Source: Candidatus Acetothermia bacterium (GTDB lineage Bacteria > Bipolaricaulota > Bipolaricaulia > M55B111). From it: 40,318 bases of DNA. Position 1 is the first letter of the stretch. Each line of letters begins with the position of its first letter. The notes under the pieces are model-generated. The model ran no database searches. It worked only from the letters and a program-made list of their open reading frames with translations, and was not told the origin of the DNA. The stretch is from NCBI GenBank assembly GCA_046543235.1, contig JBKGZT010000004.1, positions 1-40,318 on the forward strand, read 5' to 3'. The position numbers and the translations under genes are program-made. Below are positions 13,025 to 27,129 of this stretch, one piece after another.

Positions 13025-16000
13025 CTAGAATTCAACCATCAAACCCGCCGATCCGTAATAGCTGCTGTAGAGCTCACCCGAATCGTCGAACCCGACGTTG
13101 ACCCCGGACACGAAAGAGACTCCCCAGCGGTCCCGGAATGGGTAAGAGAACTCCGTCTCGGTATTGACGTCCACCTCTCCCGAACCGGGAAAGTAATCGA
13201 GTCCGAAATCCAATTCGGGAGAAAGTTTTGAATTTATCTTCCAGCTAAGCGAATCTTCCAGGTTATAGGACCATCCATCCTCGGCCTTGTAGCTAACCCC
13301 TGTCTTCAAACGGTTATTTAGGCCCGGAGCTAACTCCCATCTCGTACCCAGGCTCAGATTACCACTATATTTGGTTTTCCGGCCGAAGTCCGGATGGGTC
13401 AACAGATTCCGGCTCAGCCGAAAGCTTACGTCTGGAGTCATTTCCTCGAACTCGTAACTCACTCCGGCCTGTACTTTATCCTCATACTCCACCAGTCGGC
13501 TGCCAATCGGGTATCTGACGTTCCGACTCAGGCTGGTATTCGAACTAAAGTTCCCTAGAAGGACCTCCCCGTCAAGCTTTCCGGAAAGCTGGTTGGAAGA
13601 ACTATCACCCTCCCAGGAAAAGGAAACGGAAGGAGACAGGTCCAGGTCCTGAACGCTCAGCTCACCGGGAGTTAACTCAATTCCGACCTTGCTATCGGAA
13701 GAATTGAAGCCTTCGAGGGAGGGTTTATCGAGGTTGCCCTCGCCGTCCAGGCTGAAGTTCACAGCGTAGTCGGGATTGATAGGGAAATCCCGGGAGAAGT
13801 CGAAATTCCAGGTAAGCTTTTCGCTCTCCGCCTTTTCCAAAGAGCCGAAAGTCAAAGGATAAGTGTAGTCAAGGCCTATATTACCCGTTCCCCATGGGGA
13901 TACTGAAAGCCTCGAAGCCAAAGTTACCGAGTCCGTCGTCGAACCGGAGGAGCTCAGCCTCCTGTCCGCCGTAACGTTCAAAGCGGTAGTCAGGTTCTCG
14001 TTCCAGAAGGTCTTATCCAGCCCCAAAACCAGCCCGAGATCCGTCCGACCTTTTCCTCCTGTATCCCAGGTAAACTCGGCACTTCCGTCCACCAGAGCTT
14101 TCCAGTACCCGGATATTCGGTTGGTAACGGTCCAGTCCTCAAACCCGGTCGACAGAGAGGAAACGGAATACTCGGTCCCCAGCCCGAGAGAAAAGTTATC
14201 GGTTACCTCCGCCTCCACCCTTACCCCGGTCGACAGTTTATCCTTCCGCTCCCGCCGGCCGATGGCGGTGTAGGTCGGCTGGTAGTACTCGAAATCGGAT
14301 GAGAAAGAAACTTCTCTTGACCAAACATCCAGATCCTTTTTTGCCTCGCCGGCCAGGAATATTCCTCTGTCCGTATGGCTACCCGGATCTATGCTCCTGT
14401 AGCGGTTCTCGTCTATCCCCTCTATTCCGGTCTCTTCTACCCCGTAGCGGTTTAAACCTTCGGCCAGCTGATAGACGGTCAACTCAGTATCATCATCCAG
14501 GTTTCTTCCCCGGCTACCGGCCCAGATGCTCTCCCCGGTGACCAGGAGTGCAGTTACCCTCTCCTTCCCGTAACTGGCAGTTTCATCGACCTTTTTGAAG
14601 CCCCGGTCCGTCCCGAACCAGATCTCCCCGTTCCGCGTAGAAATGGACCGTACCGCCTCTCCTTCTACAAGTCTCTCCTCCTCGGCGTCCACCCCCACCC
14701 TGGTCATTCCTTCGGGCGTACCGACGAGAAGCTTCCCGTCGGACACCAGCGCGTCCTCCACCACGCTATCGATCACCGGCCCTTCACCAACCAGCTCCTC
14801 CTCTTCCAGGTCAAACAGGTACAAGCCATCCTTCGTACCGAGCCATAGGTGTTCTTCGACGAAGGAAACCGTCTCGATCGCCGCTTCGTCCAGCTCTCCC
14901 AGATCAATTTCGTTCCATGGGTCGTCTTCCCCCAGTTCGCCGGTTTCAAAACGGAACACCCCGGAACTCGTCCCCACCCAAATTCTCCCGTCGTCGCTCG
15001 CCAGCGATAGTAGCTCCGTTTCCGGTAGGCCGTCCGATTCGTAGTAGCTCTCCCAGTTATCGGACCTGCCAAACGGGGAAGTACCGGTCAAGTCGACGCT
15101 GGTGAGTCCGCCTACCGTCGCCAGGTATAACTTACCGTCGACGACCAGTCCTTCGTTTACCTTGTCAGCGGACAGCCCGTCGTTCGTACCGAAACTTTCC
15201 CAACTATCAGGTCTTCTGGCGGTAAAACCGTTATCATGAAGAAACAGAATTTCTTCGTAACCGGCGTCCTCGAGGGAGATAACGCCGTTGATCTGGTTCG
15301 GTAGATGAACCCTCTCGTTGTCGTCAAAAGGAAACCTGTTCAGATTACCGCCGAACCTTAATCCGAGGTTCCAGCCGTTTTTCTGATAGTTCGCCCCCAC
15401 CCCGACAACACTGTGTACGTTTGGCATGGTAGACACTTCGGGCGGTAATTCGGCCGGGGCGCTGTCCCTTGCCTGAAAAAGGTGGACATCCGCCGTCAGC
15501 CCGTAATCGGACTCCAGGCTCGTACTGAATCCGTAGAGAGTTCGACCAAACTGGGCGAAGCCTCCCAGTCCATCGCGCGCGCGCTCGAAGTCAACTTTCA
15601 GTTCGTCATCCGGCCCGAGCTCTCGAAAAAGGATCAGGGCTCCCGTCTCGTAGTCGATCGAATAATCGGTATCTTTCGTCAGTAGTTCCCCGTTTAGATA
15701 GACCTCTTCGCTATCCGGAGCTACGGAAAACCCAAGCATGTAAGTCTTTCCGGATATTTCGTACTGGAAGCTCGCCCTCATCCCTGCCCCTTCCAGGTCG
15801 GAGAAGAACTCATCCGGAAAATCGACCTCGAAGACACCTTTACCCGCGAAGAGATCGTAACCGTACCCGGTCAGGCCATCGACCGACGTCCAGTCCCCGT
15901 CCTGCCGGACTTGCAACTCAAAACCGTCCCTGTTAACACCGGTTTGACCGAGGAAGTAAAACCTCTCTTGTGAGTAGTCATCTATCTCCAGCTCGTCATC

Positions 16001-16966
16001 TCCGACGGTTAGGCGGATATAACTTTTTAAAGCCTCCAGGAATTCCTCTTCCAGATCCGTACCACGATTGAAGGGGTACTCCTCCTGCTCTTCCTCCGGA
16101 AGGTTCTGGTTATAGGCCGAAATATAGTCCTTGACCCAGGATCTAGACAAGGTATTTACTTCCTCTAAAAGCAGAAGGTAATCCTGTTCTTCGGATATTA
16201 CCGTAAACCGGTCTGAATCGAGTTCTTTTTCCGGTTCCTCGGTGATTACCTCTTCCAGGTAACCAAGTTCCCATCCCTGCAGGAATTCCACTAGCCCGGC
16301 GCCGGTCCTGAACTCGGCCTCCGGAGTGGTAAAGCCTTCTACGTATTCCACGTCAAGCTCGTAGTACTGCAAACCGCGAATACTTTCATCGTACCCGGTT
16401 TCTTCCAGCCCCGCATCAGTTCTGTAAAGCGAGTACTCCACTTCCGATTCCCCGGTGTCACCCCGAAATACTTTGGTCTCGGATATGCCCTGGAGCCTTC
16501 CCGCTATCGCTCTTACGCCGGCCCCATCGAGGGCTCCGTCGAGCTCGAGGCCCAGGAGTTTCTTGTTGTAGACGGTAAAGTTATCCCCATCCCCCGCAAC
16601 TATGTTCCCGGCTAGCCCGTCCCAGTTATCGGTGTCCATCCTGAGTTCGAATTCCTGAAGGTAACCCGGCTCCGTGTCGTCAAGGTTGGCGGAAAGCGAG
16701 AAAACCTCGCCGATCTCCCCGCTCAAGTCCACTTTAAGGGTCTGGCTGAGCGAGTACGAATCCTTGGGGTAGCCAACTTCCGACAGGCTGCCACCGTCTC
16801 CGATACCCCCCTCAACCGTCCATGTCTTCTCCCCTCCCAGGTCGATCCGAAAGGAACCCGTCTGCACGGTCAGCGCTTCCACCTCGCCGACCGAGATACT
16901 CAAAACCAGGAAAAAGACGAAAACAATAAAAAAACCGACCACAAGGTTCTTCTTATGGTTTTCCAT
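13025..16966 (-). CDS. Large predicted outer-membrane beta-barrel protein with SprA-like motifs and an internal beta-propeller
   Basis: N-terminal signal peptide; alternating amphipathic strands; C-terminal Phe (GLMVEF); VYLNGELLTKDTDYSIDYETG motif; repeated WxGTxxG/DGL propeller blades. Confidence 0.75.
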   Translation of the reverse strand: MENHKKNLVVGFFIVFVFFLVLSISVGEVEALTVQTGSFRIDLGGEKTWTVEGGIGDGGSLSEVGYPKDSYSLSQTLKVDLSGEIGEVFSLSANLDDTEPGYLQEFELRMDTDNWDGLAGNIVAGDGDNFTVYNKKLLGLELDGALDGAGVRAIAGRLQGISETKVFRGDTGESEVEYSLYRTDAGLEETGYDESIRGLQYYELDVEYVEGFTTPEAEFRTGAGLVEFLQGWELGYLEEVITEEPEKELDSDRFTVISEEQDYLLLLEEVNTLSRSWVKDYISAYNQNLPEEEQEEYPFNRGTDLEEEFLEALKSYIRLTVGDDELEIDDYSQERFYFLGQTGVNRDGFELQVRQDGDWTSVDGLTGYGYDLFAGKGVFEVDFPDEFFSDLEGAGMRASFQYEISGKTYMLGFSVAPDSEEVYLNGELLTKDTDYSIDYETGALILFRELGPDDELKVDFERARDGLGGFAQFGRTLYGFSTSLESDYGLTADVHLFQARDSAPAELPPEVSTMPNVHSVVGVGANYQKNGWNLGLRFGGNLNRFPFDDNERVHLPNQINGVISLEDAGYEEILFLHDNGFTARRPDSWESFGTNDGLSADKVNEGLVVDGKLYLATVGGLTSVDLTGTSPFGRSDNWESYYESDGLPETELLSLASDDGRIWVGTSSGVFRFETGELGEDDPWNEIDLGELDEAAIETVSFVEEHLWLGTKDGLYLFDLEEEELVGEGPVIDSVVEDALVSDGKLLVGTPEGMTRVGVDAEEERLVEGEAVRSISTRNGEIWFGTDRGFKKVDETASYGKERVTALLVTGESIWAGSRGRNLDDDTELTVYQLAEGLNRYGVEETGIEGIDENRYRSIDPGSHTDRGIFLAGEAKKDLDVWSREVSFSSDFEYYQPTYTAIGRRERKDKLSTGVRVEAEVTDNFSLGLGTEYSVSSLSTGFEDWTVTNRISGYWKALVDGSAEFTWDTGGKGRTDLGLVLGLDKTFWNENLTTALNVTADRRLSSSGSTTDSVTLASRLSVSPWGTGNIGLDYTYPLTFGSLEKAESEKLTWNFDFSRDFPINPDYAVNFSLDGEGNLDKPSLEGFNSSDSKVGIELTPGELSVQDLDLSPSVSFSWEGDSSSNQLSGKLDGEVLLGNFSSNTSLSRNVRYPIGSRLVEYEDKVQAGVSYEFEEMTPDVSFRLSRNLLTHPDFGRKTKYSGNLSLGTRWELAPGLNNRLKTGVSYKAEDGWSYNLEDSLSWKINSKLSPELDFGLDYFPGSGEVDVNTETEFSYPFRDRWGVSFVSGVNVGFDDSGELYSSYYGSAGLMVEF

Positions 16967-17054
16967 GAGAACACCATTTCGAATCCAAGATGGTTGATCA
17001 CCTCTACAGTATCCAATCCTAAACCACGAGATAACGACCGTGCAAACTAAAGCG

Positions 17055-20067: not shown

Positions 20068-20524
20068 TTTCGTTGACCTCTCCAAGCCGGTTCTCGGCGC
20101 GCTCCAGTATTTCCCGATCGTTATCGTAGGTCACTCTCTCCAGTGCTTCTTGAAACGGGAGCCAGCTGAAATCAAGGTGTTCGGAGGAGAGTTTAACTTC
20201 ACTTTGAGGACTTACCAGGGCGAGGTAATACACCACGGTCTTATCTACTTCGATTCCGCCCCTGCTAAAGCCGTAATTGACTTGCTCACGGAAGTCGGGA
20301 ATAAACTTCTCAGGCCTGAGGCCCGTTTCTTCCGCCAGCTCCCGGACCGCGGCCTCTTTTGTCGTTTCGCCCTTCTCGAGATGGCCTTTTGGAAAGCTCC
20401 AGTGGCCCCCGTTGGAGTGCTGCAATAGAAGGTATCTTCTGCTACGGGGGGAGCGCCTCGCCGCTACTACTCCTCCCGACTTCTCCTGCTCTTTCGACGA
20501 ATGGTCAGGAGAGGTTGAGCTCAT
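20057..20524 (-). CDS. Nudix hydrolase, asymmetrical Ap4A hydrolase-like
   Basis: YLLLQH...HWSFPKGHLEKGETTKEAAVRELAEETGL Nudix box, KTVVYYLA, LSSEH. Confidence 0.85.
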   Translation of the reverse strand: MSSTSPDHSSKEQEKSGGVVAARRSPRSRRYLLLQHSNGGHWSFPKGHLEKGETTKEAAVRELAEETGLRPEKFIPDFREQVNYGFSRGGIEVDKTVVYYLALVSPQSEVKLSSEHLDFSWLPFQEALERVTYDNDREILERAENRLGEVNENEN

Positions 20525-23500
20525 TGCCCTCGGCATCCAGCGCTTTCGGGCTTAGTCCAAGGCTCCTCAGCTCTCTGACCAACACCTTAAAGGACTCCGG
20601 AATTCCCGGCTTGGGCATCGGCTCGTCCTTCAATATAGCTTTATAAAGCTTAGTCCTGCCCTGAATGTCGTCCGATTTCAGGGTCAGCATTTCCTGAAGT
20701 GTGCTCGCCGCACCGTAGGCTTCCAGGGCCCAGACTTCCATCTCGCCGAACCTCTGGCCGCCGAACTGAGCTTTACCGCCAAGAGGTTGCTGGGTGATCA
20801 GGGCATACGGCCCCGTCGACCTCGCGTGAAGTTTCTCGTCGGCAATGTGCTCGAGCTTCAGTAGATACATGTGGCCTACCGTAATGGGCCTATCGAACGG
20901 CTCTCCCGTTCTGCCATCCCGGAGTATTACCTTACCGTCCTCGTCGGCTCCTTCGTCCAGCCCCTGCTTTTCTTGTTCCTCCTGAAGGTCCTGAAGGATC
21001 TCTTCCTCACCGGCACCGTCAAATACGGGTGTACTGGAATGCTCGTCCTTGAGCGAAGAAAGCCAGCCCAGATGAGTTTCAAATACCTGTCCCAGGTTCA
21101 TCCTGGAAGGAACTCCAAGTGGGTTCAGCAGAACGTCAACCGGAGTACCGTCGGGCATAAATGGCATGTCCTCTTCCGGCATTATCTTGGCAATTACACC
21201 CTTGTTGCCGTGCCTGCCCGCGAGTTTGTCCCCGATAGAAATCTTCTTCCGGGTGGCCACGTATACCTTTACCAGTTCGTTTACGCCGGTATCCAGCTCG
21301 TGCCCCCTCTTACGGGAGAACTTCTTGACCCTGATTACCTTGCCCTTGCCGGCGGTCGGAGGAAGCTTCAGCGAAGAATCCTTGACGTTCCTAGCCTGTT
21401 CTCCAAATATGGAGCGGAATATTTTTTCCTCGGGACTCGGTTCCGACTCCCCCTTCGGAGTTATCTTGCCAACCAGGACGTCGCCGGTTTCCACTTCCGT
21501 ACCCTCTCTGATTATGCCTCTCGAATCCAGGTTCTTGAGGTCTTCCTTGCTTATGTTCGGTATGTCCGCGGTGATTTCTTCCGGTCCCAGCTTGGTCTCT
21601 TCCGCTTTAACCTCGAATTCCTCTATATGAATGGAGTCGAAAAGGTCTTCCTTTACCAGACGTTCGGAAACTACGATCGCGTCCTCGTAGTTGTAGCCCT
21701 CAAAAGGCATGAACGCGACGCGAAGGTTCCGGCCCAGGGCCAGTTCACCTTCTTCGCTCGAAGAACCGTCAGCAAGCACGTCACCCTTCTCTACTTCCTC
21801 CCCGGGCGACACGAGTGGCCTCTGATGTACGAGAGTATCCTGGTTGGAACGGGTGAAGGTTTTAAGCGAATAGGTCTCGGTACTGCCGGAGTCGTTCTCC
21901 ACCTCTATCTCTTCGGCATCGACGTAAGAAACCTCGCCGGATTTCTCCGCTACTACCAGCATACCGGAATCCTGAGCCGCCTTTTTCTCCATTCCCGTAC
22001 CGACCAGAGGCGCCTCGGGGTCGACGATTGGAACGGCCTGTCGCTGCATGTTCGCACCCATCAGGGCCCGGTTGGCGTCGTCGTGTTCCAGAAAAGGAAT
22101 CAGCGACGCGGAGGGTCCGACAATTGCTTTTGGAGAGACGCCGACGAAATCAACCTCTTCCGGTGGAACCCGCCGGATGTTCTCCTGACCGGTCCTGATT
22201 TCGACCCTTTCCTCGGTAAGATAACCTTCCTCGTCTATGTCAGTGGTCGAAGGTGCGATCTTATAATTCTCTTCCTCGCCGGCCATCAGGTACTCGATCT
22301 CTCCGGTTACCTTCCCTTCTTCCACTCTCATGTAAGGGGCTTCGAGAAAGCCGTATTCGTTGACCTTGGCGTAGTTCGCCAGGGAAGTGATCAGACCGAT
22401 GTTCTGCCCCTCCGGCGTCTCGATCGGGCAAATCCTCGAATAATGCGACGGGTGGACGTCCCGGACTTCCAGCTTCGCCCGCCTCTGACTCAAACCGCCC
22501 CCGAGGGCGTTCAGTCGTCTCTTGTGGGTAAGTTCTGCCAGGGCATTCGTCTCCTCAAGGAACTGTGAAAACCGTCCCGTGTAAAAGAACTGGTTCAGAG
22601 AAGACTGGATCGGTCGTGTCGGCATCAGGTCGCGGAGGGTATCGTCGTCGTCCAGGCTAAACTTGGACAGCTTGTCTTCGGTCGTCCTAACGACCCGGTT
22701 CAAACCCCTTTCGAACGCGGAACGTGCCGCTTTCCCGGGTAAATTTACCACCTTATTTGCCAGGTGGTCCTTTTCGTCGAGAATTTCTAGGTTATCCGGA
22801 ACTTTGAGCAACAGATCCAGGGCACTAAATATATCGTTTTTGGTCAGCGCCAGAGTCTCCTCGTCCAGCCCCAGCTTGCTGTTGGCCTTGAAGCGACCGA
22901 CCTCGGAAAGAAGGTAGTTCTCCTCGTCGAAGAAGAGGCCCTTTATGTAATTCTCCATCTTGGTAGTCGAAACCCTTCCGGTCGGTCGGAGTTTTCCGTA
23001 AATAAACCTTACTGCTTCTTCCTTGCTCCGGAAATCGTCCCGCTCCAGGGTATTGCCTACGTACTCGTTTAGCAGGCTTATGGATTCCTCGGTTGCCTCG
23101 TTCAGAACCACTTCTACGTCTTCCTTCCGCAGCGTTTCCCCGGCTTCGAATATTACCTCCGAATCACGGTGGACGTCCTCGCCAAAAGTGTGGCCCACGT
23201 AACGCCGGAGATTGCTTTCCGTAACGGGATCGACCTCGAAGCTGAAGTTCGAGTAGATATCCTCCTGGTCCATACCCAGAACCCGGAGAAAAACCGTCAT
23301 GGGTACCTTGGCTTCCCTGTCGAGGTTTGCGTACAGCCTCTTCCGGTTGTCGTCGAGAACGAGCTCCAGCCAAGCACCGTAATCGGGCAAGATGTGGGCC
23401 CGATACTGGTTATTTCTCTCCGCCGTGATGTAAACCCCAGGAGCACGGGCCAGTTCGTTTACCAGAACGTTCTCCGACCCGTTTATCAGGAAAGTACCCT

Positions 23501-23837
23501 TCGGGGTCATAACCGGTATATCCGCCACGTAAAGCTCGCTCTCCAGCACCTGGTTATCTTCCCCGTCGTAGAGAAGCGCGGTTATTCGCAAAGGTCTATC
23601 GTAGGTCAAGTCCTTATCGGCGCAGTCCTCGACGCTTCCCCGCAGTTCACCCAGGGTGGGTGCAGTAAATTCCAGCTTAAAATCCGTCCTGCTTCCGGCC
23701 TCTACGGGTGATACCTCGTCGAAAACCTCTTCCAGACCTTCTTCAAGAAACCGCTCGTAGGACTCTTTCTGATCCTCCAATAAATAAGGAGGCTCGATTG
23801 CTTCACCGTAAGTACTGTAGTCCTGTCTTTCCCTCAA
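20505..23837 (-). CDS. rpoB: DNA-directed RNA polymerase beta subunit
   Basis: RDVHPSHY, CPIETPEG, PFLEHDDANRALMGANMQRQAVP, GYNYEDAI, GDKLAGRHGNKG, GGQRFGEMEVWALEAYGA; directly downstream of rplL; TTG start with SD GGAGG. Confidence 0.97.
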   Translation of the reverse strand: MRERQDYSTYGEAIEPPYLLEDQKESYERFLEEGLEEVFDEVSPVEAGSRTDFKLEFTAPTLGELRGSVEDCADKDLTYDRPLRITALLYDGEDNQVLESELYVADIPVMTPKGTFLINGSENVLVNELARAPGVYITAERNNQYRAHILPDYGAWLELVLDDNRKRLYANLDREAKVPMTVFLRVLGMDQEDIYSNFSFEVDPVTESNLRRYVGHTFGEDVHRDSEVIFEAGETLRKEDVEVVLNEATEESISLLNEYVGNTLERDDFRSKEEAVRFIYGKLRPTGRVSTTKMENYIKGLFFDEENYLLSEVGRFKANSKLGLDEETLALTKNDIFSALDLLLKVPDNLEILDEKDHLANKVVNLPGKAARSAFERGLNRVVRTTEDKLSKFSLDDDDTLRDLMPTRPIQSSLNQFFYTGRFSQFLEETNALAELTHKRRLNALGGGLSQRRAKLEVRDVHPSHYSRICPIETPEGQNIGLITSLANYAKVNEYGFLEAPYMRVEEGKVTGEIEYLMAGEEENYKIAPSTTDIDEEGYLTEERVEIRTGQENIRRVPPEEVDFVGVSPKAIVGPSASLIPFLEHDDANRALMGANMQRQAVPIVDPEAPLVGTGMEKKAAQDSGMLVVAEKSGEVSYVDAEEIEVENDSGSTETYSLKTFTRSNQDTLVHQRPLVSPGEEVEKGDVLADGSSSEEGELALGRNLRVAFMPFEGYNYEDAIVVSERLVKEDLFDSIHIEEFEVKAEETKLGPEEITADIPNISKEDLKNLDSRGIIREGTEVETGDVLVGKITPKGESEPSPEEKIFRSIFGEQARNVKDSSLKLPPTAGKGKVIRVKKFSRKRGHELDTGVNELVKVYVATRKKISIGDKLAGRHGNKGVIAKIMPEEDMPFMPDGTPVDVLLNPLGVPSRMNLGQVFETHLGWLSSLKDEHSSTPVFDGAGEEEILQDLQEEQEKQGLDEGADEDGKVILRDGRTGEPFDRPITVGHMYLLKLEHIADEKLHARSTGPYALITQQPLGGKAQFGGQRFGEMEVWALEAYGAASTLQEMLTLKSDDIQGRTKLYKAILKDEPMPKPGIPESFKVLVRELRSLGLSPKALDAEGNELNLS

Positions 23838-26037: not shown

Positions 26038-27129
26038 TTAAATTTTCTCTATTCCTTCGAACCCTATATCTACTGGAGTCTCTCGACCGAATATCTTTAC
26101 GTTTACGGTTACCTCTTCTGCCTCCTTGTCTATGGCAGTGATCTCGCCGGTAAAGTCCGCGAAAGGACCCTCGACTATCTCTACTACTTCTCCGACGTCG
26201 AAGTCAACCTCTATCCTCGGGGTGCTCGGGGCGGTAGGAGATTCTATTAGCCCTGCAAGGCGCTTTACGACCTTCATCTCCTTTCCCCTTATCGGAATCG
26301 GGTGGTATCGGGAACCCACGAACCTCACGGCTCCCCTGATGTCGTCGACCAGGTCTATCATCTCTTCTTCCGGGAGATCCATTTTTACAAAAACGTAACC
26401 TGGGAAAAGCCTTCGTTTTTCGACGGGCTGAACGGTCACCACCCGCTTATCCTTATATTCTTTGACCTTGACCATTCCCGAAGAACGGGATTCTATTACG
26501 TCCTCTTCCTCTATCCGGTCCCCTTCCTCGAACTCGTCCCCTTCCTTTAACCTGACCAGATAACGGTCCGGTATAACCATTCTTTCTTCCGAACCATCGT
26601 TCAGGACGAAATCTATCCGCTTTACCTTGTCCCGTAATGCTATCTTCCCCTTGACGTTAACGACGAATTTCTCTTCCTTATCGGCCGTCAGGGGAACGCC
26701 GGACCTAATTTTTTCCCCTTTCCGGATATCCCTGCGAATCCGCTTATCCGTGGGTATGAGGTAAGTTTCCTCCGTTCTGTTCGTCATTTCGACGATTACT
26801 CTCTGCAAGGTCTCTACTTCGGAAACAAGACAGTCCCAGTCCAGGTGTTTTGGCGGCTTTCGCGCTATCGAGTCCCCCCGGCTTAACCTCTCGTTCGAAT
26901 CGACCAGGAGATCGTAGTCGTAAGGGATTCTGTATTCGTTGGATTTGCCGCGGCGGCTCCGAGAGGTAATTACTTCCTCGATCGGGACCACGCAATACTC
27001 ACGCTGTCCGTTTTCCTTAAAACTCTTCACCTTGTCTTCCAGGTCCCTGTTCTTGATCCTTCTCTCGAGCTCCTTTTTTACCTTGAGCTCGGAACCGGCG
27101 TACGTTTGGATAGCGTACCATTTTTTCAT
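26038..27129 (-). CDS. nusG: Transcription termination/antitermination factor NusG with a large insertion
   Basis: [18 protein letters not shown], and KOW domain [16 protein letters not shown]...IFGRETPV; lies between secE and rplK. Confidence 0.93.

Follow-up and report, generated by a model that had tools for sequence, protein, structure and literature searches.

The 40,318-nucleotide stretch of DNA analyzed here (the window; contig JBKGZT010000004.1 of assembly GCA_046543235.1, a Candidatus Acetothermia bacterium of the phylum Bipolaricaulota, genome G000) carries a sprA-like gene, P0001. Its product is probably the outer-membrane translocon of a minimal system that resembles a type IX secretion system (T9SS), in which a SprA-like pore, PorV-like carriers, and cargo bearing type-A-like C-terminal domains (CTDs) would act without the known energy chain. 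Homology and fold relate the protein to SprA, the three parts co-occur and are genetically linked, and no match to the known motor was detectable. The gene itself is located as follows:

13025..16966, minus strand: sprA-like gene P0001, encoding a giant outer-membrane beta-barrel of 1313 amino acids (aa)

The open reading frame (ORF) has no internal stop codon, ends in the residues GLMVEF, and encodes an acidic protein (D+E = 18.8%); it is a genuine gene for a true but distant SprA homologue. A single-sequence phmmer search against the PDB returned only antibody noise and nothing relevant, and a profile was required to detect the relationship. The family profile, spanning aa 33-560 and built from 25 members, matched the solved Flavobacterium johnsoniae SprA at E 4.5e-10, with the runner-up at E 0.51. 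The match consists of two collinear stretches (profile 20-161 to SprA 149-297; profile 386-501 to SprA 695-806). A first-pass annotation, made from the letters of the window, had pointed to two SprA-like blocks and had named a lack of profile similarity as grounds for abandoning the comparison; the blocks, one at aa 72-169 (nt ~16460-16753), the other at aa 409-446 (nt ~15629-15742), are the stretches that produce these two matches. TIGR04189 matches P0001 weakly at aa 399-483 (E 5.5e-5, 20.5 bits vs a cut-off of 200) and is matched by 33 of the 35 aligned family members. On these sequence comparisons, P0001 is a homologue of SprA and not an equivalog. Within the family, conservation is highest in the cap module that SprA shares. 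A Thermus thermophilus match to TIGR04189 at E≤1 was gone at E≤0.01 and was dropped. Two further observations concern the cap: a phage tail tube family weakly matches this small module in 5 of the 35 family members, and a group of Phe-ending proteins of 1300-1800 aa (P0124, P0135-P0140, P0142, P0145, P0154, and others) gives five to seven profile matches each, centred on the same module.

Two overlapping AlphaFold models were obtained, covering aa 114-1313 (predicted local distance difference test, pLDDT, 87.0) and aa 33-1232 (pLDDT 85.9). Together with the sequence, they divide the protein into the following parts:

16874..16966, minus strand: predicted Sec signal peptide, aa 1-31; hydrophobic N-terminus up to VEA/L, judged by eye, with relatives hydrophobic at the same place
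16463..16852, minus strand: predicted barrel strands 1-7, aa 39-168, mostly matching SprA 149-297, without a preceding N-terminal periplasmic extension
15548..16462, minus strand: folded insertion after strand 7, about aa 169-473, a putative extracellular cap with the SprA-shared module at aa ~399-465
15335..15547, minus strand: predicted barrel strands 8-11, aa 474-544, including an invariant MPN loop
14450..15307, minus strand: Reg_prop-type beta-propeller, aa ~554-839, between strands 11 and 12 (loop 6), putatively extracellular
13034..14374, minus strand: predicted barrel strands 12-36, aa 865-1311, with short loops
13028..13057, minus strand: C-terminal beta-signal with terminal Phe, read from the sequence

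Foldseek placed SprA entries at ranks 1-3 for both models (E 1.4e-19 and TMq 0.43 for aa 114-1313; E 1.3e-17 and TMq 0.35 for aa 33-1232). Barrel strands were present in the models, where the first-pass annotation had listed a missing barrel or a lack of structural similarity as counter-evidence. Strands hand-picked from the DSSP strings of both models add up to a predicted 7 + 4 + 25 = 36, with alternation of inward- and outward-facing residues that is clear in most strands and weaker in strands 5, 7, and 36. The SprA barrel likewise has 36 strands (PMC10994853). Because the strand number is that of SprA, the short chain is due to short loops and an absent N-terminal extension, and the modeled pore is full-size rather than smaller. 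The pore had previously been described as roughly half-size, which the count contradicts, since only loops and the extension are absent; the approximately 450 aa of amphipathic strands described after the propeller correspond to the 25 strands at aa 865-1311. Mature P0001 begins ~7 residues ahead of strand 1 and lacks the SkpA-binding N-terminal extension. The signal peptide and the terminal Phe had been recognized earlier and are both readable in the sequence; F is the last residue in 31 of the 35 aligned family members. Turns after even-numbered strands span 2-8 aa, and the two large insertions (about 315 aa behind strand 7 and 320 aa behind strand 11) come after odd-numbered strands. Both insertions would lie on the extracellular side of the modeled barrel if the N- and C-termini are periplasmic.

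The propeller that interrupts the barrel, seen already in the first-pass annotation, is supported by a Reg_prop match (E 3.8e-6) and by a fold match of model residues 444-725 to the BT3049 propeller (Z 26.1, root-mean-square deviation (rmsd) 2.4, 256 residues aligned). Propellers fill the best 50 VIA-align matches listed and SprA is not among them, which says nothing about the barrel. The propeller is modular within the barrel family, because in the 1027-aa homologue P0108, which lacks it, strands 8-11 continue straight into 12-36. No supporting evidence was found for the sensor or lectin role once suggested for it. It is very improbable that P0001 serves uptake, with the propeller at its surface capturing glycans or peptides. 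The closest folds to this outward-facing propeller are indeed glycan-sensing domains (BT3049 and BT4663, Z 26), but many unrelated WD40 propellers reach Z 24-25, and the conserved propeller positions are mainly the G, W, L, and T that form the structural repeat. Moreover, a TonB-type motor was not found (MotA/ExbB/TolQ in 0 of 41 related genomes, with matches in 9 of 14 controls), and the genes linked to the pore gene encode exported proteases and Ig/PKD proteins bearing sorting tails.

This linkage is central to the translocon reading. Initial searches with the T9SS CTD and PorV families gave matches directly beside the sprA-like gene in Bipolaricaulota genomes. A sample of 80 loci was then scored (67 Bipolaricaulota-type, 8 Bacillota, and 5 distant), in which records such as 'uncultured Thermotogae' were counted as Bipolaricaulota-type by similarity and loci with less than 1.5 kb upstream were dropped (12 of 67 Bipolaricaulota-type and 1 of 8 Bacillota). 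In 54 of 55 Bipolaricaulota-type loci, and in 6 of 7 from Bacillota, a CTD gene and a porV-like gene were both present on the strand of the pore gene and no more than 6.5 kb upstream of it; the pair was found upstream in none of the 5 distant loci. Such sprA-linked loci supplied the sequences for the carrier and CTD profiles, and independent libraries agree with them: NF033709 is matched by 36 of 42 carriers and TIGR04183 by 41 of 42 CTDs. The carrier profile matches F. johnsoniae PorV along its length (E 5.8e-12), and the best PDB match of the CTD is that of PorU (E 5.3e-8, vs E 0.016 for FlgD). The tails were also considered as flagellar FlgD domains; this was rejected, as T9SS tails score better and MotA was not found.

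Carriers were detected in 35 of the 41 genomes and CTDs in 37 (1-38 matches each), and both in all 23 high-quality ones. The genome search that had been proposed for PorV, PorK-N, BamA, and shared CTDs thus returned PorV-like proteins, CTDs, and BamA, and no PorK/GldK match over the cut-off. Scanned cargo comprises S8 proteases, M6 proteases, and PKD/Ig proteins. Since carriers and CTD cargo are linked to the pore, secretion is favored over uptake, which retains one half of the earlier "secretion or uptake system" and disfavors the other. A cognate carrier-CTD pair from locus L043 was modeled as a complex with a score of 0.90, whereas the best of 3 controls reached 0.00; at least 93% of contacts agree between runs, and the partner pLDDT is at least 85. 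Of 157 solved complexes, 116 reach the mark used in complex prediction, as do 2 of 215 mismatched pairs, and this pass may reflect memory, similar complexes having already been solved. A nearly invariant Arg close to the tail end falls in the modeled interface. As a separate observation, genome G037 has 38 CTD matches vs 3 carrier matches, so that some carriers must serve many cargoes.

Phyletic profiling showed the sprA-like gene to be near-universal in Bipolaricaulota (124 of 130 genomes, 70 of 71 high-quality ones, with a single match in 119 of the 124) and present in some Bacillota; it was found in 40 of the 41 related genomes. Close relatives occur in BamA-positive Bacillota, including 10 of 12 genomes of one class. 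The named full-length relatives of P0001 belong to Ca. Bipolaricaulota, which bears out the early placement of the host outside Bacteroidota. The family profile recovers 2151 cluster representatives at E≤0.001, true-barrel status having been checked for the best-scoring ones only. For the strand 1-7 region, an unrooted tree with 61 rows and 156 columns was constructed without Bacteroidota SprA. One of its branches (100/99) divides 21 propeller-less proteins from a side that holds 39 proteins with the propeller and, on a long branch, P0108. The propeller-less side includes proteins from Elusimicrobiota, Spirochaetota, Zixibacteria, and Aerophobetes.

The searches for other T9SS and envelope components returned few matches. 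BamA was present in 5 of 5 genomes; in the same number, LpxC was found in none, and PorU was matched only at model positions 962-1095, its CTD part. No lipopolysaccharide (LPS) genes are reported for these bacteria in PMC6092417. A broad FGE-sulfatase fold search for GldK gave no match in 32 of the 41 genomes, including the single-contig G026, and matches below the cut-off in 9, similar to those of 3 controls. Sub-cut-off matches to GldL in 15 of the 41 genomes (at most 23 bits vs 68, with 5 of 14 controls matching too) were taken as noise. No conserved cysteine column was found in pore, carriers, or CTDs. For the known motor, GldKLMN, no match exceeded the cut-off; SprE/PorW, PorG, PorT, Plug, and PPI were not searched for. 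As an observation in its own right, the Bipolaricaulota are a diderm phylum with a very spare envelope toolkit, as TamB, too, was found in 0 of 5 genomes (6 of 14 controls match). An Lpt-like operon is nonetheless present in G000 (C61:1226-6274), although LpxC was not found; its genes encode a weakly LptC-like protein, an ABC ATPase, LptF/G, and a product of 772 aa that ends in Phe and has no Pfam match.

These results bear on whether P0001 could instead belong, as translocon, to a T9SS that is complete but has diverged strongly, with a motor and hub that escape Bacteroidota-trained profiles or with an unrelated energizer, which we consider unlikely. The SprA-like pore itself scores 18-40 bits against its own family, so motor parts could drop below detection; the GldM and GldN controls were silent; and the motor negatives cover GldKLMN, with SprE, PorG, PorT, and Plug outside the search. 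In G000 (L160:8028-11153, minus strand), the gene for the 708-aa BamA is followed by one whose 325-aa coiled-coil product weakly matches OmpH/Skp (E 1.2e-5, below the cut-off), which could be counted in favor of such a system. However, the FGE-sulfatase fold search, whose controls match, was empty in those 32 genomes, among them single-contig G026, and the SkpA-binding extension is absent from P0001. The lack of conserved cysteines is unlike the GldK-disulfide partners SprF, the gliding carrier, and PorG, which are linked to GldK according to PMC12635249.

Under the preferred reading, a minimal type-IX-like system, BamA would insert the pore and carriers, while cargo would pass the inner membrane via Sec and fold in the periplasm. 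The cargo CTD would then enter the barrel lumen and bind a carrier docked at a lateral opening, and cargo and carrier would exit sideways. As neither a PorU sortase nor LPS was found, the cargo would most likely remain anchored at the surface through its carrier, like type B substrates. Release without a GldKLMN chain would probably occur by spontaneous dissociation, and this motor-free release is the weakest inference of the mechanism. The propeller would most likely serve as a lid or docking surface, replacing the long C-terminal loops of SprA.

Among known systems, P0001 resembles SprA/Sov of F. johnsoniae and Porphyromonas gingivalis (6H3I, 6H3J, 8GL6, 8GL8; TIGR04189) in the collinearity of strands 1-7 and the cap, in its top Foldseek match, in its large outer-side folded insertions, and in its C-terminal Phe. 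It differs in length (1313 aa vs 2403 aa), in the short loops of its C-terminal half, in having no N-terminal extension, and in its built-in propeller; unlike SprA hosts, its own is without LpxC and without detectable GldKLMN or PorU. The linked barrels and tails match the families of PorV and type A CTD cargo (6H3I_F, 8GLJ; NF033709, TIGR04183), and the pair passes complex prediction, but the carriers are about 270-320 aa long, unlike the 402-aa PorV, have several paralogues, and are often encoded beside a cargo gene. This pairing of a cargo gene with its own carrier gene, together with likely carrier anchoring, recalls type B cargo and its cognate PorP/SprF shuttles (PMC12618676). Unlike type B, however, the tails obtain their best scores as type A, and for the carriers it is the PorV/PorQ family that scores best, with PorP/SprF not among the matches. 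The propeller shares fold and repeat with the Reg_prop propellers of hybrid two-component sensors (BT3049, BT4663) and with PorZ, which is weakly matched by 10 of the 35 P0001 family members. Unlike these, it is a single propeller in a barrel loop without signaling or Ig domains, and the shared fold shows no function. The P0001 system would work like a T9SS translocon core, yet it is not classed as a T9SS member, because the TIGR04189 cut-off, the N-terminal extension, GldK, and PorU/LPS all gave negative results.

Several observations weigh against the translocon reading. The TIGR04189 equivalog cut-off of 200 bits was reached in 0 of 41 genomes (range 18-40 bits), the structural superposition of P0001 on SprA is partial (rmsd 18-21 Å), and neither model includes both barrel ends; neither closure of the barrel nor a lateral opening was observed. 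GldL, GldM, and GldN were absent over the cut-off from all 41 genomes, in a search for which there was no true positive control genome, and the five tested Bacillota genomes with the same pore family do carry MotA/ExbB genes. In F. johnsoniae, loading is energy-free and release needs energy, SprE, and SkpA (PMC10994853), and motor-free release is therefore without precedent. Three genomes with the pore gene, G001, G013, and G014, gave neither a CTD match nor a carrier match. The search pattern behind the 80-locus sample does not match G000 itself, and the cassette-less sublineage is thus under-sampled in the 54 of 55. In the window, and likewise in G014, G007, G005, G010, and G016, priA is followed directly by the pore gene. 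The single CTD of G000 is degenerate and belongs to an acidic protein of 1164 aa (C13:26-3520), and no porV-like reading was found in any frame of this genome; nor was a porV-like gene found in 5 further genomes of the genus, which are likewise incomplete. The position of the missing cassette is as follows:

16967..17054, no strand: the 88-bp gap from priA to the sprA-like gene, where kin carry genes for a CTD-tagged S8 protease and a porV-like protein

In kin loci L043, L046, and L049 the order is priA, CTD-tagged S8 protease, porV-like, sprA-like, and manC, whereas in the window and L150-L154 the cassette is not between priA and the sprA-like gene. The cassette has left this gap in this lineage and the pore gene has been retained, a situation particular to this window. 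The first-pass annotation was right that the window holds no other T9SS genes (none among the 34 ORFs scanned), but the orphan status that this suggested does not extend to most relatives, which have PorV-like and CTD genes directly upstream. The likely cargo in G000 is the 1164-aa protein. In G006, G007, and G010, a porV-like gene lies directly upstream of its orthologue, away from the pore gene. Contig C13 of G000 starts with a stop codon and a 17-base spacer near-identical to the spacer after porV in G007, and the flanking genes of G007 have their counterparts at the end of contig C61 in G000. Sequencing runs of one hypersaline study, from which G000 possibly derives, cover C13:1-55 at several times the depth found beyond it, and one loose end ahead of the C13 junction reads GAFGESAE-stop, which matches the C-terminus of those carriers. 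The porV gene of G000 therefore probably lies in an assembly gap, an indirect reading drawn from synteny and one 30-base loose end, which counts against the case. True loss of porV is disfavored, as the contig breaks exactly at the expected porV site. An exact-pattern scan of metagenome contigs for the C61-C13 junction gave 0 matches.

Two further observations concern this contig. At C13:1-114, contigs of four runs branch into different sequences after positions 58 and 114, as if the 1164-aa surface protein varied between strains in its body while its start was common to them. At C13:3744-6203 (plus strand), an 819-aa secreted protein without a Pfam match, conserved in G006, G007, and G010, resembles the CTD-tagged cargo of other families over its first ~630 aa (26-29% identity) and ends in a short beta-barrel-like tail without a CTD; this is possibly a switch of export or anchoring route.

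Alternatively, P0001 might act as a large pore of general use or belong to the structure of a toga-like outer membrane, the carrier/CTD link being a relic already lost in this sublineage. We regard this as improbable. It would fit a near-universal single-copy gene among housekeeping genes, the absence of the cassette from the locus in G000 and five kin, the few other outer-membrane barrels picked by a crude filter in G000, as well as the cells' sheath-like outer membrane and their S-layer (bioRxiv 2025.11.21.689855). Nevertheless, the three genes are tightly linked across families and also among Bacillota, a porV-CTD pair is retained elsewhere in three kin without the cassette (G006, G007, and G010), and it is the SprA-shared cap module that is best conserved.

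A full-text literature search, mostly at title/abstract level, with subscription journals largely missing and no supplements, found no paper on SprA or T9SS in Bipolaricaulota. T9SS has been called Bacteroidota-restricted (PMC10515386) and, in a 2026 review, still restricted to one phylum (PMC13721041); elsewhere it is derived from gliding (PMC12635249) or extended to the FCB group (PMC12398890), and PMC7323717 concerns Bacteroidetes only. A phylum-wide set of pore, carrier, and cargo in LPS-free, non-motile, MotA/ExbB-less bacteria challenges this single-phylum restriction. It equally challenges energy-requiring carrier release as given by Lauber et al. 2024 (PMC10994853), and a three-gene system lets the energy requirement be tested directly. 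The export core seems to work outside Bacteroidota and without machinery thought to be needed. The system may also explain the placement of proteases and surface proteins outside the sheath, and a first cultured member, strain J31, has been reported (bioRxiv 2025.11.21.689855). Only tentatively, we propose that pore, carrier, and CTD might form a self-sufficient three-part export and display system with no energy chain, older and wider than Bacteroidota (Bipolaricaulota, some diderm Bacillota, and other phyla), to which the T9SS motor and gliding track were later additions, and that it may build the toga protein surface in Bipolaricaulota.

P0001 lies in a housekeeping neighborhood, flanked by priA and a mannose-1-phosphate guanylyltransferase gene (manC), and promoter and terminator scans gave signals no better than chance. 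At 20505..23837, what follows rpoB is not rpoC but a NUDIX gene, then one for an MBL-fold protein, and then priA, an order that is the same in kin. At 26038..27129, the window encodes a NusG of 363 aa with two NusG-type stretches and a NusG_add domain.

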